Of a stretch of 64,000 nt of DNA, positions 11,707 through 57,227 are shown one piece after another. Both the position numbers and the translations under genes were made by a program. Under the pieces are notes generated by a model. It was not told where the DNA came from and ran no database searches. It saw only the letters and a program-made list of their open reading frames with translations. Each line of letters begins with the position of its first letter. Position 1 is the stretch's first letter. Source of the DNA: a virus (taxonomy: Duplodnaviria; Caudoviricetes); the IMG/VR virus record IMGVR_UViG_2568526092_000002, positions 1 through 64,000 of that record. One strand, 5' to 3'.

Positions 11707-11738
11707 AATGGTCAGCGTATGATTAGCGGGAGTTACAA
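11707..11738 (-). promoter_or_regulatory. Class I phage promoter motif
   Basis: TTGTAACT-N18-ACCATT. Confidence 0.55.
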
Positions 11739-11777
11739 AGTCCTTTCTTCAGGTCTTCAAAACTAGTTTTAAACCTT

Positions 11778-12089
11778 TTACTTATTTGCGCTCTTGTCTG
11801 CTAAGCTGTGGGAAGGTTTAATGAAGGAAGCAAGCAATGCAATACCTGCAAAGATTTGCGGTAAAGCGGAAGCGGGAATTGTTGTGTGGAAAATAGCACT
11901 CAGCGTACCAGCCACGAATGAACCCGCAATGAGTTTTAACCCGAAGCCGATAACCCAACCTACCAAGAGAGCAAACAAAGTTTTAAGTAGAATAATACTA
12001 ATAATAATTGCTAACGCTCCTGCAACTCCGACTGCTCCTGCCGCACCAATACCCAAACCTGCCAATAACGCTCCGACTACTTTTTTCAT
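11778..12089 (-). CDS. Small multi-pass membrane protein
   Basis: Several Gly/Ala/Leu/Ile-rich hydrophobic stretches in 103 aa. Confidence 0.7.
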   Translation of the reverse strand: MKKVVGALLAGLGIGAAGAVGVAGALAIIISIILLKTLFALLVGWVIGFGLKLIAGSFVAGTLSAIFHTTIPASALPQIFAGIALLASFIKPSHSLADKSANK

Positions 12090-12304
12090 TGTCGAATCTC
12101 TCCCTTAAAGTATTTGAAGTAGTCATGCTCATCACTTAATGGCTCGTACTTGATTCCGTTATCGGCGGGATATGGCTCAGTGTGAATTACTTTTAATTCC
12201 TGAATCTCTTTAGGTATTCCATTAGGGTAAGCCGCACAGGTCATGTTCTCCCGTTCGTCCCTATTAAAGTGCTTGCAGAATATGCAAGGAATTGTAATAT
12301 CCAT
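12086..12304 (-). CDS. Small Cys/His protein, candidate immunity protein
   Basis: RBS GAGGGG + ATG 12304; CIFCKHF...CAAYPNGIPKEI...HTEPYPADNGIKYEP, a pattern I associate with small genes downstream of MuF-type toxin genes (from memory, not searched). Confidence 0.65.
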   Translation of the reverse strand: MDITIPCIFCKHFNRDERENMTCAAYPNGIPKEIQELKVIHTEPYPADNGIKYEPLSDEHDYFKYFKGEIRQ

Positions 12305-12501
12305 TATAAAAATCCCCTCTCCATTGCTGCCAATTCCATCTCTTTCGTATACGTGACTGATTGAGTTTCTTCTATATAAAGGAGCTTCACTCAGGACAGG
12401 CAAGGCAACGTAAGACGCTTTTAGGAAGTTTGCTCCCTCTTACAGAGATATAGTGCTCGTTATTAAAGAGATGATTTTATGAAACACATGTTGGCACATT
12501 G

Positions 12502-13620
12502 TTACCACCCCTCACATTTGAATCCACCGTACTGCTCGTACCACTCCCATATCTTCGCATCAATAGGCACTCCGGTTATCTTGGCGGTGAATGTTTCAGG
12601 CATCATTTCAATAGGAAACCACTTGGTCGCATAATTACAAAGGTGGTTCGCAATATACGTCGATTCCGCATTGGTGAGGATTGTCTTCGCTCCGTAGTTG
12701 TCAGGGTCAAGGGCAGAGTACGTATAGAACTGTTGTGCTCCAATGTTGTGATAATGAAGCCAGTGCCCAATCTCATGAATGACCGTCCTCAGTTTATTAG
12801 GAGAAGACTTCTGTCCAGTATCGTATTCCATCTGAGCGATGACATCCGCGTTGGCGTAGTCATACGTCTTACTTACAACAACCTTTCCAGAGGAAGGGTC
12901 AAAGTATCCATTCGCACCATTACCGTTCTCAATCTTAATTGTTAGCTTATGCTTCTGAATCATATCAGCGAAGCCGCCGCAGGTATTCAGGAGTAACGCC
13001 AATGCTTCGGTCACATAGTTAGCGGCATCAATCTTCTTAGCGAAGTTTACTGACACTCCTAAGTTACTTGCCCACTTCTCAGCTTCAACAACGGAAGTAA
13101 ACGGTTGCCACGTAACAGGAAGCTGTATGCCACTTTCCGGTGCGTCCGGTGGTTGTTGGTCTTCGGCTGGCTCTTCGGGCGGGTCAGGGTAGTTACCTAA
13201 GTCAGTTGTTCCGGTGAGTACAAGGTTAACGTCAGGCTCAGTAAGGAAGTGGAACATCAACTCAAGGTTCTTTCCGTCTCCGTGTGGTGTGTGGTACTCG
13301 AACAGGAACTCTTTACCTGCCACCACTGGATGCGCTACCTGTAAGTACAAGCCTTCCTCGTAGTTCTTGCAATGAATGTTCTTGGCGAGTACCTTTCCGT
13401 CCACAGTTAAATTCCAGTAGTCTTCGACGGTATTCATGTTCGTTCTGATGGATACCGCATAGAACTCAAGGTCATGGGACATTGTAAAGGTATCTTTGAT
13501 CATCCTATCCCCGTTCGCCTTAGCAGGAACCGTGATTGCCCTGCCCACAAAATGAGGGTGAGGTTTGGTAGGGTAGTAGGGTGGGTCTAGTCGCCCACCG
13601 ACAGCATAACGATCGAACAC
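12502..13620 (-). CDS. Fusion: tail-region GGRLDPP domain + Pro/acidic linker + HExxH zinc metallopeptidase
   Basis: aa 1-127 align with 56838..57224; linker DPPEEPAEDQQPPDAPE; C-terminus RTVIHEIGHWLH...E(MMPE). Confidence 0.8.
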   Translation of the reverse strand: MFDRYAVGGRLDPPYYPTKPHPHFVGRAITVPAKANGDRMIKDTFTMSHDLEFYAVSIRTNMNTVEDYWNLTVDGKVLAKNIHCKNYEEGLYLQVAHPVVAGKEFLFEYHTPHGDGKNLELMFHFLTEPDVNLVLTGTTDLGNYPDPPEEPAEDQQPPDAPESGIQLPVTWQPFTSVVEAEKWASNLGVSVNFAKKIDAANYVTEALALLLNTCGGFADMIQKHKLTIKIENGNGANGYFDPSSGKVVVSKTYDYANADVIAQMEYDTGQKSSPNKLRTVIHEIGHWLHYHNIGAQQFYTYSALDPDNYGAKTILTNAESTYIANHLCNYATKWFPIEMMPETFTAKITGVPIDAKIWEWYEQYGGFKCEGW

Positions 13621-14039
13621 TACTGACCCTCCTCAGTCTTGGAATCCATTATCTCTGTAATCACCCTAAGACGGAACCCACAGGTTGCTTTGAGGTCCTG
13701 GAACTCTTCCATAAATTTATCCTTGTGATGTTTTACAAGTGCCAAGCGCGTAAAAGCATCCTTGTTTTCACGGTATCTGGCCTTCTTTCCAGCAAGATGC
13801 TTACCCCTGTGTTCGTGGTATTGCTTAATCCCCCTTATTCTCTGGTCACAACAAGTGAATAGATGATTACTGCTACATATTTTTTGGAAGGTCTTACCGC
13901 TTTTCTTGCAAACAAAATCCTGTTTTACTCTGGGTTTGTAAGGCGCAACGAAGGTCATACCCCCTATTTTTTTAAAGTCAGTTGTCAAGTTAGACCAATT
14001 AATAGTTGAAATTTTGGGTATCACTTTATCTACTCCCAT
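13620..14039 (-). CDS. Cys-rich basic hypothetical protein
   Basis: C..KxFxKxC...CC; its stop overlaps the GTG start of the peptidase fusion. Confidence 0.55.
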   Translation of the reverse strand: MGVDKVIPKISTINWSNLTTDFKKIGGMTFVAPYKPRVKQDFVCKKSGKTFQKICSSNHLFTCCDQRIRGIKQYHEHRGKHLAGKKARYRENKDAFTRLALVKHHKDKFMEEFQDLKATCGFRLRVITEIMDSKTEEGQ

Positions 14040-14202
14040 CTGTCGGAGAAGTTTGTATAGCCAAGTACGGAGGGTGAAGATACCTTCTCTTTCCTATGGC
14101 TGGCTTTGTTCTCATATCTTTACGAATTCCTATGTAATCTCTGAGCATTCTCCAACCTTGACCAAGTTTCCTTAACCATAATACTTACTGAAGATGATGG
14201 AA

Positions 14203-14385
14203 CTAATCGTCTTCACTGACGCCCTTCTTCAGAAAAACACCGCCAACAGAGACGTATCTTAAACCAGCGTATTTTTCCTCAGCTACATCGTTCGAGTCAT
14301 CCCAAAGGGCATTCATCTTGTTTGCGTCCTTGATGGTGTTACCGCCCATGGTAAGCAGAATCTCTTGCAATGGCTCAGCACTCAT
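14203..14385 (-). CDS. Hypothetical phage protein
   Basis: 60 aa, RBS GGAGG. Confidence 0.6.
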   Translation of the reverse strand: MSAEPLQEILLTMGGNTIKDANKMNALWDDSNDVAEEKYAGLRYVSVGGVFLKKGVSEDD

Positions 14386-14395
14386 GTGTTTCCTC

Positions 14396-14599
14396 CTAGT
14401 GTAAAATAGTTGGTTCGCCGTTCATCTGCTCAACTTGATTCATGACTTGCATCATCTCTTGAGCGAAGGTGATAATCATTGCTGCGGCTATATCAGAATC
14501 GACTTCCTCTTGCCGACCGCCATTCTTAGCGATGTTCTTTGCCGTGTGAGCAACCTTACCTGCGATGATTTCTGCGTATTGTTCTGTTGTCATCTTCAA
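14396..14599 (-). CDS. Hypothetical phage protein
   Basis: 67 aa, RBS AGGGG, class I promoter upstream. Confidence 0.6.
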   Translation of the reverse strand: MKMTTEQYAEIIAGKVAHTAKNIAKNGGRQEEVDSDIAAAMIITFAQEMMQVMNQVEQMNGEPTILH

Positions 14600-14621: not shown

Positions 14622-14653
14622 AGTGGTCGCTACATAGTCTCGGATAGTTGCAA
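14622..14653 (-). promoter_or_regulatory. Class I phage promoter motif
   Basis: TTGCAACT-N18-ACCACT. Confidence 0.65.
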
Positions 14654-14819
14654 AATCAAATTTTCAAGGAAAGGAGTGCGAAAGCAGAAACGCCCATCTT
14701 CTTGCTCAGACCTAACTGCCCTTCATAATCAACTCAAGAGTGGATGGAAAATCCAAAGGACGAATACTCGACCGCTCCGTAGTGACGGTCTTCCTTGTTC
14801 CGTTCAATGTCTCCGGTTC

Positions 14820-15776: not shown

Positions 15777-15806
15777 CAATATAAGGTACTTACTTTAGTT
15801 AGTAAC
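15777..15806 (-). promoter_or_regulatory. Class II (putative late) promoter motif
   Basis: GTTACT-N17-TATATTG. Confidence 0.6.
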
Positions 15807-56837: not shown

Positions 56838-57224
56838 CTATTTGAGCGTTTGGTAGTTTGCCCATACTACCTTAGGCTTGCCGCCCTCATTAAAGAACTC
56901 AAAGTGAAGTTGTGTTCCCTGCTTACATGGGATAATCGCCGTCAGGTACATCCCCTCCGGTAAATCCTTCGTGTAAATGTTCTTACATACCAGCCGTTCC
57001 CCTACGTACAAGTTCCAATAGTCTCTTGCTTCATAGTTGGATACGCCGACTGCAACGGAAAGCAACTCACAATCCTCTTGAATGGTCAACTTGTGTTCGA
57101 CCTTGCCCGCCATTGGGGACTCTATCATAATCCCTTCAATGTACGGGTTCGTTTTGGTAGGCATAAAAGGAGGGTCGAGTCTACCGCCTACCAGATAACT
57201 CGCAAAATTTGCTCCGCTAGACAT
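56838..57224 (-). CDS. Tail-region protein (GGRLDPP domain)
   Basis: 128 aa within the tail operon; paralogous to the N-terminus of 12502..13620. Confidence 0.75.
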   Translation of the reverse strand: MSSGANFASYLVGGRLDPPFMPTKTNPYIEGIMIESPMAGKVEHKLTIQEDCELLSVAVGVSNYEARDYWNLYVGERLVCKNIYTKDLPEGMYLTAIIPCKQGTQLHFEFFNEGGKPKVVWANYQTLK

Positions 57225-57227
57225 TCA

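Follow-up and report, generated by a model that had tools for sequence, protein, structure and literature searches.

A predicted lethal-factor-like protease on a tail-tip protein paralogue, with a small Cys3His partner, in a head-less Jenst-like provirus

The window, a stretch of 64,000 nt of viral DNA, carries on its minus strand a 372-codon gene with a GTG start (12502..13620). The encoded protein is a member of PHROG 28013, which it matches end to end at 8e-209. It is composed of three parts: a beta-sandwich N-domain (residues 1-140; 13201..13620), recognized by BLASTP and a structure model as a paralogue of a 128-aa tail-tip protein; a Pro/Glu-rich linker (about residues 141-170; 13111..13200), delimited by the model and by conservation; and a HExxH zincin C-domain (residues 171-372; 12505..13110), by fold and motifs a lethal-factor/MPTase-like gluzincin. 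Downstream, behind a 197-nt spacer read directly from the sequence (12305..12501), lies the gene for a 72-aa Cys3His protein (12086..12304; PHROG 33375, match 1.3e-43), which has its own RBS. An ATGA overlap joins its stop to the ATG of a gene for a 103-aa hydrophobic, apparently membrane protein (11778..12089; PHROG 30257). The 103-aa protein has tblastn matches only in the closest relatives and in phage Jenst, not in loci L002, L004, L006, L011 and L015-L022. Upstream of the fusion lies a Cys/His-rich basic ORF (13620..14039), whose stop overlaps the fusion start in the sequence TAGTG. All these genes are encoded on the minus strand. No PHROG or Pfam family was found for the Cys/His-rich ORF. 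It is present in close strains and not homologous to the genes at the same position in L004 and Jenst. On this comparison, it is a lineage-specific insertion outside the conserved system. The first-pass annotation of this DNA had included it in the system as a coupled upstream gene: Its overlap with the fusion start holds, its membership does not.

The fusion has 24 homologue clusters, all full-length and with 51-99% identity, from Paenibacillus/Brevibacillus genomes and the phages Jenst and SecTim467. Across this 372-aa family the C-terminus is uniform, and polymorphic C-termini, which had been proposed as a mark of a toxin system, were not found among its homologue clusters. Neither Pfam nor NCBIfam assigns the fusion, the 72-aa or the 128-aa protein to a family with significance. 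The Jenst copy of the fusion, JENST_116, is annotated as 'putative low copy number virion structural protein'. The PHROG label 'virion structural protein' of the fusion is most likely an annotation carried over via the N-domain.

Residues 2-117 of the fusion align with residues 7-118 of the 128-aa protein (35% identity over 116 residues, E 2e-23, BLASTP), and PHROG 5955 matches both proteins, the fusion at 1.2e-25. The two genes are separated by 43 kb. The stand-alone 128-aa protein (56838..57224, minus strand) belongs to the family of ORF128 of another phage, 0305phi8-36. ORF128, likewise a stand-alone protein, is annotated in GenBank as 'low copy number virion structural protein', and 0305phi8-36 orfs 126-134 encode low-copy virion proteins (PMC2147016). 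The 128-aa protein is 80% identical to Jenst gp40. Its gene is flanked by a 154-aa gene and an 886-aa PHROG 9258 gene and is located downstream of the M23/3D tail protein gene. The order of tape-measure, distal-tail and M23-peptidase tail proteins followed by the 128-aa gene is the same in Jenst. Sequence and gene order assign the 128-aa protein to the tail tip.

The N-domain model contains nine strands (residues 21-140). An N-terminal peptide, GGRxDxPxxP...P...G, is conserved and holds many of the columns conserved across the whole N-domain family. A fold search with the N-domain yielded generic jelly-roll/GOLD-like matches only (Z 7-9) and no specific solved relative, and neither the full-family nor the N-domain profile had a significant sequence match in the PDB. 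No kinship with YomS and XepA is claimed, as the Z of 6.3 lies within the beta-sandwich background. A word-based search for longer relatives of the 128-aa protein found none, whereas an exhaustive profile search did find fusions. Besides about 35 stand-alone PHROG 5955 members, the N-domain was found joined to a second zincin type, to Big_2, to domains with weak fn3 and VWA-like matches and to uncharacterised domains. Such fusions lie inside tail operons in two of the three neighbourhoods examined. P0037 stands at the position of the 128-aa gene in its tail operon, and its C-terminal part is a distantly related zincin that shares the HExxH/Y/E..AE pattern; P0039 is located in tandem with a 127-aa orthologue of the 128-aa protein. 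This means, other C-termini, for which a search had been advised on first reading, do occur on the N-domain.

The linker is predicted to be disordered, with pLDDT <50 at residues 145-157 in the model of the fusion. Its YPDP motif is nearly invariant (Y144, P145, D146 and P147 each in at least 90% of sequences). In the C-domain, conservation and alignment place the HEIGH motif at residues 282-286 (12763..12777, minus strand, as for the following codons). Alignment to lethal factor assigns Y330 (12631..12633) as the predicted catalytic Tyr and E338 (12607..12609) as the predicted Glu zinc ligand; E342 (12595..12597) is invariant as well. All six residues, H282, E283, H286, Y330, E338 and E342, are unchanged in 20 homologues with 51-99% identity, and H282/E283/H286, Y330 and E338 align to the lethal-factor motifs HEFGH and Y...E. 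Over most residues the C-domain model has a pLDDT of 85-98. Its best fold match in VIA-align is lethal factor 1yqy (Z 11.0, 169 aa, rmsd 4.0), which scores above unrelated rows; PPEP-2 (Z 8.3) and PPEP-3 (Z 7.6) are further matches. Foldseek returned many lethal-factor entries with probabilities up to 0.99. The family profile of the C-domain matches lethal factor (E 0.005) and 4l7a (E 7.7e-6) with HExxH and Y...E..AE aligned. Searches with the C-domain against Pfam gave sub-threshold matches only (DUF4344 0.029, M48 0.053) and neither an M34/ATLF nor an NCBIfam match. According to the Pfam scan and the structure model, the fusion has one enzymatic domain only. By its motifs and modelled fold, the C-domain appears to be a lethal-factor/MPTase-type zinc protease with an intact catalytic site. 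The first-pass annotation had read the ORF at 12502..13620 as a tail-protein paralogue with roughly one-third identity, followed by a Pro/acidic linker and a HExxH zincin, and BLASTP, pLDDT and the invariant motif residues agree with it in each of these parts.

Relatives of the C-domain were found in a profile search as fusions to MuF or Phage_min_cap2 proteins. Others reside in giant polyvalent proteins bearing ADP-ribosyltransferase (ART) domains. On the evidence of these profile matches, the C-domain is homologous, not merely analogous, to MuF-borne metallopeptidase domains. A search for related loci with the close zincin clade returned the 372-aa family alone.

In the family of the 72-aa protein, C7, C10, C23 and H41 are invariant. 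Its predicted model has a pLDDT of 48, too low for use, and its Atlas entries are unnamed viral clusters only. A homologue of the 72-aa protein is encoded downstream of the fusion in all loci examined (L002, L004, L006 and Jenst). The gap between the fusion and the small gene amounts to 3-70 nt elsewhere, or the genes overlap. The 197-nt spacer of the window is lineage-specific, with a 97% match only in the closest relative L012. In Jenst, gene 115 occupies its position; no remnant of this gene was found in the spacer. One scan of viral contigs revealed 80 loci of the Cys3His family, and in most of them the small gene is located 0-80 nt downstream of effector-bearing carriers.

The same protease is also present on a second tail carrier. 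In locus L011, the PHROG 9258 tail protein P0027 bears it (E 6e-29), and the BLAST alignment between the fusion and this cassette starts at residue 144. Only 14 nt after P0027, a 68-aa Cys3His homologue is encoded (42% identity to the 72-aa protein, E 6e-17). The P0027 tail operon is syntenic with that of the window. Comparison of these loci shows that two unrelated tail-tip proteins bear the same predicted protease cassette and that protease and Cys3His gene move as a unit between MuF, the PHROG 9258 tail-tip protein and the PHROG 5955 paralogue. By its conservation, the 72-aa protein genuinely belongs with the protease cassette, and the Cys/His gene noticed earlier about 200 bp downstream is confirmed as a conserved companion, 197 nt away here and kept on the other tail carrier. 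So far, phage-borne effector domains have been linked to the MuF head protein and to large polyvalent proteins. The effector-on-MuF scheme appears to extend to tail proteins as carriers. Since the cassette resides on two tail carriers, a free C-terminus may be all that a particle protein needs to serve as a carrier.

Brevibacillus laterosporus is the host on which phage Jenst grows. In the window, TerL is reduced to a 20-aa remnant, and a search of the contig with the Jenst capsid gene gave no match. The whole stretch is present in contigs of close strains. By its gene content, the window is a provirus from a Jenst-like phage of Paenibacillus/Brevibacillus with a deleted head module. Therefore, any particle made would be a tail alone, and a full virion, at first envisaged as the carrier, does not apply to this window. 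The pair of fusion and 72-aa gene is kept with intact motifs in Jenst and in head-less proviruses. In reduced proviruses it adjoins a tail-fibre gene. Delivery by the tail tip would be possible even for elements that no longer make heads.

The pair may be a protease effector cassette that uses a tail-tip protein as its carrier, with the small protein as a generic accessory factor. This is the reading that we prefer, with the chances for and against it about equal. The 372-aa protein would take the tail-tip site of the 128-aa protein in low copy, which is plausible because the fold and the N-terminal docking peptide of the 128-aa protein are retained. The flexible Pro/Glu linker would hold the protease outward from the tail tip. 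The protease would most likely cut host proteins upon adsorption or immediately afterwards, with surface proteins or early intracellular ones as candidate targets, and it might release itself by cutting its own linker. The 72-aa protein could act, e.g., as a zinc-dependent chaperone, holdase or loading factor for virion-borne C-terminal effectors; its distribution speaks against an inhibitor made for this protease in particular. Features that count against the proposal are the replication-gene setting headed by a class I motif (see below), the uniform C-terminus of the 372-aa family and the N-domain being a common beta-sandwich.

Rather unlikely is that the fusion is an intracellular, non-virion enzyme, i.e. 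an early or middle protein in which the tail-like domain serves only as a binding module and which either processes a tail-tip component during assembly or cleaves host proteins. This would fit the location of the gene outside the tail operon among DNA polymerase, primase and sigma-factor genes, as well as its transcription signals. The gene string containing the fusion is headed by a phage-specific 'class I' promoter-like motif at 14622..14655 on the minus strand (TTGCAACT, a spacer of about 17 nt and CGACCACTATAG), defined from aligned copies; the next copy is found at about 11707-11740. Eleven copies were aligned by direct reading, and the motif is common to the replication genes. Class I timing is probably early or middle. 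No late-type CTTATAWTG motif was found directly upstream of the fusion. In addition, MPTase domains are able to serve as processing enzymes (PMC5512222). However, late read-through might reach the fusion, as a late promoter motif is present at 15777 and no terminator was found in between. A generic scan for sigma-70 promoters and terminators gave nothing above chance. A single minus-strand 'terminator' was rejected, as it sits within a CPHCG zinc-ribbon codon run. Against a non-virion enzyme also speak the equivalent fusions within tail operons of other phages, the domain relatives on MuF head proteins and the pair adjoining a tail-fibre gene in reduced proviruses.

A classic polymorphic toxin with its cognate immunity protein, as put forward by the first-pass annotation, is unlikely. 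According to this explanation, an antibacterial protease is displayed on or delivered by the tail, and the 72-aa protein shields the producer or new lysogen by binding the active site. The small gene is the immediate downstream neighbour and accompanies the protease domain from carrier to carrier, tandem small genes in L033, L054 and L076 resemble immunity arrays, and lethal-factor-like peptidases are counted among the domains of polymorphic toxins (Zhang et al., 2012; PMC3482391). However, the same small family (about 47% identity) is also found behind MuF fusions that end in an ART domain, without HExxH anywhere in the upstream ORF, and behind MuF fusions with a third, uncharacterised domain class. 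Identity between small proteins from ART-zincin pairs (47.3%) equals that within zincin-zincin pairs (46.3%), i.e. there is no divergence by enzyme class. The 72-aa protein of the window itself shares 47.1% identity with ART-linked members and only 41.6% with the remaining zincin-linked ones. On the small-protein tree, which is poorly resolved, the ART label does not form a cluster. Furthermore, family-wide motifs take up much of the length of the small protein and, therefore, leave little variable surface. No C-terminal tail motif common to zincin, ART and uncharacterised carriers, as a possible recognition site for the small protein, was found. Since ART- and other-domain carriers share the small family without class divergence, these comparisons argue for a generic accessory factor and not for a classic cognate immunity protein. 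Promiscuous immunity superfamilies, SUKH and SuFu, appear in the Imm-SUKH and Imm-SuFu rows of the same source (PMC3482391) and, by analogy, leave room for an immunity role of the small protein. A widespread unnamed Cys3His protein that accompanies protease, ART and uncharacterised cargo alike calls into question the routine label 'immunity gene' for each small ORF behind a MuF toxin.

A further idea, for which the chances are slim, is that the head-less Jenst-derived proviruses are domesticated flexible-tail tailocins tipped with the protease. The lethal-factor-like protease would be a delivered or displayed weapon or a penetration factor and the Cys3His protein a universal loading or safety factor for virion-borne effectors whatever their enzymatic class, which, if true, would represent a new functional class beside toxin and immunity. 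That the fusion is a functionless relic, a duplicated tail gene with a captured protease domain drifting in a defective prophage, would fit the lack of head genes in the window's element but is very improbable, given a full-length ORF, catalytic residues invariant in 20 homologues down to 51% identity, one homologue from the viable phage SecTim467, a copy in Jenst and a likewise conserved partner gene.

The preferred tail-tip cassette resembles the MuF polymorphic toxins of temperate phages (Zhang et al., 2012, PMC3482391; Jamet et al., 2017, PMC5576092) in its N-terminal virion structural carrier, swappable C-terminal enzymatic domain and small downstream ORF. Its protease domain has homologues on Phage_min_cap2 and MuF proteins, and the small genes downstream are of one family. 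Unlike these toxins, the fusion has no MuF domain (no PF04233/PF06152 superfamily match, Pfam E up to 1), its carrier is a tail-tip protein paralogue, and its gene is not beside the portal gene but has replication genes as neighbours. The MuF route loads the cargo inside the capsid, whereas a tail-tip fusion would sit on the tail. For zincin-like MPTase domains in polyvalent proteins of phages and plasmids, packaging into the particle and injection have been predicted, with an early action as effectors or a role in self-processing (Iyer et al., 2017; PMC5512222). The fusion shares with them a HExxH zincin with a downstream Glu, related to lethal factor only by profile and fold, and relatives of its C-domain in giant ART proteins. 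It differs in that only one effector domain is joined to its small structural carrier, so that the fusion is not polyvalent. A search of PMC5512222 found no mention of tail-tip carriers or of a small partner rich in Cys. A carrier of the PHROG 5955 type, regarded as new in the initial reading, is likewise not mentioned in PMC3482391, PMC5576092 and PMC5512222, which treat virion-borne toxins.

With anthrax lethal factor and the Pro-Pro endopeptidases PPEP-2 and PPEP-3 (peptidase family M34), the C-domain shares the fold, HExxH, the catalytic Tyr and the Glu ligand, at a sequence identity of only about 10-15%. The fusion has neither the substrate-binding domains of lethal factor nor a secretion signal, and the modelled fold and motifs shared with lethal factor are no proof of a shared substrate or toxicity. 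In type VI secretion, 'evolved' VgrG/PAAR spikes are paralogues of a tip component that carry a C-terminal effector beside a plain copy. VgrG/PAAR adaptor and chaperone genes illustrate that a small adjacent gene may serve loading and not immunity, a functional analogy with the 72-aa gene. The proteins and the machine are unrelated; the likeness is functional, and homology is not claimed. Finally, the fusion may be compared with tail-associated lysins, exemplified in the window by the M23/3D tail protein (57730..61218): By analogy, it would be an enzyme on the tail tip directed at the host envelope at infection. Tail-associated lysins, however, cut peptidoglycan within a core tail protein, whereas the fusion is a predicted protein-cleaving zincin on an accessory paralogue.

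All genes considered here lie on the minus strand of the window. The fusion gene (12502..13620) encodes 372 aa; its GTG start codon and the stop codon of the preceding ORF overlap. In BLASTP, the fusion is 35% identical over 116 residues (E 2e-23) to the 128-aa protein encoded at 56838..57224. Both match PHROG 5955, and the fusion matches PHROG 28013 along its full length. This bears out the first-pass annotation, which had placed a tail-protein paralogue at the N-terminus of the fusion. Gene order marks the 128-aa gene as a tail-tip gene: it is preceded by a tape-measure gene, two distal-tail genes, the gene for a 1162-aa M23/3D peptidase tail protein and a 154-aa gene, and followed by two PHROG 9258 paralogues and a PHROG 11431 protein. 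The same order is found in Jenst, a siphovirus (PMC4909266). The annotation of a distant homologue of the 128-aa protein, ORF128 of Bacillus phage 0305phi8-36, reads 'low copy number virion structural protein', and low-copy virion proteins are encoded by orfs 126-134 of this phage (PMC2147016). At the amino-acid level, the fusion is 76% and the 128-aa protein 80% identical to the counterparts in phages Jenst and SecTim467, to which the window is close.

Equivalent fusions inside tail operons were found in three informative loci, all metagenomic. In L008, the 673-aa protein P0037 takes the position of the 128-aa gene, flanked by a 135-aa gene and a PHROG 9258 homologue. Its N-domain shares 46% identity with the 128-aa protein, and its C-terminus is a distant zincin (HExxH metallopeptidase) in which the HExxH...Y..P.E..AE arrangement recurs (hhalign E 1.7e-4). 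L009 encodes a 473-aa N-domain fusion in tandem with a 127-aa orthologue. The most telling locus is L011, whose tail operon comprises, in this order, a 154-aa-like gene, a 128-aa orthologue, P0027 and a small gene. P0027 is a PHROG 9258 tail protein with a C-terminal protease that, of all outside relatives, is closest to the protease in the window (E 6e-29, PHROG 28013 positions 171-368). Only 14 nt past P0027 follows a 68-aa protein that is 42% identical (E 6e-17) to the 72-aa protein encoded behind the fusion. From this arrangement it follows that protease domain and small gene travel together between carriers. Two different tail-tip proteins serve as carriers of the protease domain, which supports the earlier proposal of a tail-associated carrier.

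The fusion was modelled with AlphaFold2 on 20 homologues (mean pLDDT 82.8). Residues 21-140 form a nine-strand beta-sandwich, the Pro/Glu linker is disordered (pLDDT < 50 at 145-157), and residues 172-368 fold into an alpha/beta domain. In an exhaustive structural comparison, the best match of this C-domain was the catalytic domain of anthrax lethal factor (Z 11.0, 169 residues, rmsd 4.0), followed by the Pro-Pro endopeptidases PPEP-2 (Z 8.3) and PPEP-3 (Z 7.6). Foldseek agreed on a lethal-factor-like fold, and matches in a viral library include proteins named 'Metalloprotease', 'Minor capsid protein' and 'Lethal factor' from uncultured siphoviruses. With a profile built from 90 diverse relatives, HExxH and the Y...E..AE motif behind it could be aligned to lethal factor (E 0.005) and to 4l7a, a zinc peptidase of Bacteroides (E 7.7e-6). 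Because H282, E283, H286, Y330, E338 and E342 are invariant in the family and in distant relatives, the C-domain looks like a catalytically competent predicted protease. Thus, a linker and a zincin domain do follow the tail-like N-domain, as had been claimed. For the N-domain, structural comparison yielded generic beta-sandwich matches only, and a PDB search with its profile found no solved sequence relative.

When 1.84 billion representative proteins were searched with a profile, 257 matched, and domains were mapped on the 150 matches listed. Among these, the N-domain stands alone in ~35 representatives (120-150 aa) and carries other C-termini in 12, namely another HExxH domain, Big_2, weak fn3 and VWA-like matches and unclassified domains; the suggested survey of its C-terminal partners thus yielded varied ones. 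In addition, a giant protein of 4799 aa, P0034, contains 23 separate matches to fusion profile positions 62-155 (N-domain end and linker), which may be beta-sandwich repeats or merely a match in Pro-rich composition. The C-domain is found on MuF or Phage_min_cap2 proteins in 9-10 of 90 proteins scanned, in giant proteins with ADP-ribosyltransferase (ART) domains, and alone. Stand-alone relatives P0057, P0075, P0156, P0162 and P0171 start with a hydrophobic, membrane-anchor-like stretch, so some family members may act at the membrane. These settings agree with those of the MPTase domains of MuF toxins, 20% of which have a metallopeptidase (Jamet et al., PMC5576092), and of polyvalent proteins. 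HHpred relates the latter domains to lethal factor, and packaging and injection are predicted for them, with a role as effector or in self-processing (Iyer et al., PMC5512222).

Many family-wide conserved columns of the N-domain fall in an N-terminal peptide, GGRxDxPxxP...P...G, which lacks structure in the monomer model and is kept in the fusion. As a putative docking peptide, it would allow the fusion to occupy the site of the 128-aa protein.

The element, integrated beside host glnA, derives from a Jenst-like siphovirus and has lost the head. In L092, an NCBI assembly with an identical tail-tube protein, glnA and other host genes lie only ~4 kb upstream of the tube gene. Compared with Jenst over window 57000-64000 and the sequence beyond it, the contig retains a 20-aa TerL scrap and C-terminal fragments of gp16, gp27 and gp30, and lacks gp22-26 (including a capsid-related protein), gp28 and gp29. 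It is intact from gp31 through the tail, as are the replication, sigma-factor and fibre genes. Four fusion-bearing proviral records gave no match to Jenst TerL or capsid, with Jenst itself as positive control. Since the head genes are lost, the description 'virion-displayed' can apply to Jenst, but the particle of the window, if made, would be a tail alone.

A non-virion role of the fusion is argued mainly by its placement among replication genes. Its neighbours encode DNA polymerase, primase and a sigma factor, and a bipartite motif specific to the phage (T[CT]GCAnCT, spacer, CGAC[CT]ACTATAG-like) stands at the head of its gene string, at ~14622-14655. The next of the 11 minus-strand copies lies at ~11707, and nine more (~4969, 8600, 10436, 15249, 19236, 20253, 22903, 25543 and 43484) precede other genes, several in the replication region. 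Jenst and SecTim467 contain a conserved motif in 19-20 copies (Berg et al.). The downstream half of the bipartite motif resembles single-subunit RNA polymerase promoters. No late-type motif was found directly upstream of the fusion; read-through from the late motif at 15777 is conceivable. Against a non-virion role, the fusion and its small downstream gene in reduced Brevibacillus proviruses come directly behind the gene for the large tail fibre and one for a sigma factor, with host DNA ~5 kb away.

In the 72-aa protein (12086..12304), C7, C10, C23 and H41 are invariant, and the core, A[FY]P[ND]GIP..I...H..P..GD.GI.[FY]E, is conserved. Such a Cys3His gene lies downstream of the fusion in every related locus examined, after 3 nt (L002), 70 nt (L004) or 197 nt (window) or overlapping it (L006); in Jenst, one gene intervenes. 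A word-based search found homologues in the fusion's own lineage only. A pattern scan of viral contigs identified 80 loci, including 11 from the family of the fusion. In most of the remaining loci, a long ORF for a MuF, Phage_min_cap2 or portal-MuF protein ends 0-80 nt before the small gene, and the C-termini of these proteins are of at least three unrelated classes: zincin (~26 loci), ART without HExxH anywhere in the ORF (16 loci, 8 distinct) and an unassigned domain (10 loci). No common C-terminal motif that could explain the link was found among the carriers. Small-protein identity between classes equals that within them (ART-zincin 47.3%, zincin-zincin 46.3%, ART-ART 48.9%). The small protein of the window's family is 47.1% identical to ART-linked and 41.6% to other zincin-linked members, and the ART label does not cluster on the poorly resolved tree. 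The small protein does not track the enzyme, as a cognate inhibitor should, which favours a generic accessory factor, presumably one that folds, loads or keeps safe the C-terminal cargo of particle proteins. An immunity protein, as proposed originally, is less likely, since the family is shared with ART and third-class carriers, but it is conceivable: The small gene does adjoin and follow the protease across carriers, and promiscuous immunity scaffolds exist (Imm-SUKH, Imm-SuFu; PMC3482391).

Individual loci show further arrangements. A single 1096-aa ORF (L030:1688-4975) combines Mu-type portal, MuF and C-terminal HExxH, with the small gene following it, and another small gene is preceded by a MuF protein that contains an intein-like insert and ends in an ART (L034:2437-4923). 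Small genes are in tandem in L033, L054 and L076. In L048/L049 (1384-1503), a weak match to the small gene inside a 1015-aa ORF directly after a zincin gene may be a fused form.

As a structural paralogue carrying cargo, the fusion resembles MuF toxins and 'evolved' spike proteins. It differs from the former in lacking a MuF domain and a packaging-module position, and from polyvalent proteins in not being polyvalent. Tail carriers and a small protein without class specificity are the additions to the MuF/lethal-factor-like cassette picture.

The Cys/His-rich ORF translationally coupled upstream (13620..14039) had been pointed out earlier. It is not part of the system: It has no counterpart in L004 or Jenst, and no gene directly precedes the fusion in L002 and L006. 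Judged from translations, the L004 gene at this position corresponds to window ORF 14396..14599. Between a 67-aa gene and the fusion, 13620-14385 holds two ORFs (60 aa; 112-139 aa, basic, Cys/His-rich), which lack family matches and are absent from L004 and Jenst. Two features on the other side also fall outside the system. The gene for a hydrophobic 103-aa protein, apparently of the membrane, overlaps the 72-aa gene at its stop and is confined to the closest relatives and Jenst, and the 197-nt spacer is likewise lineage-specific.
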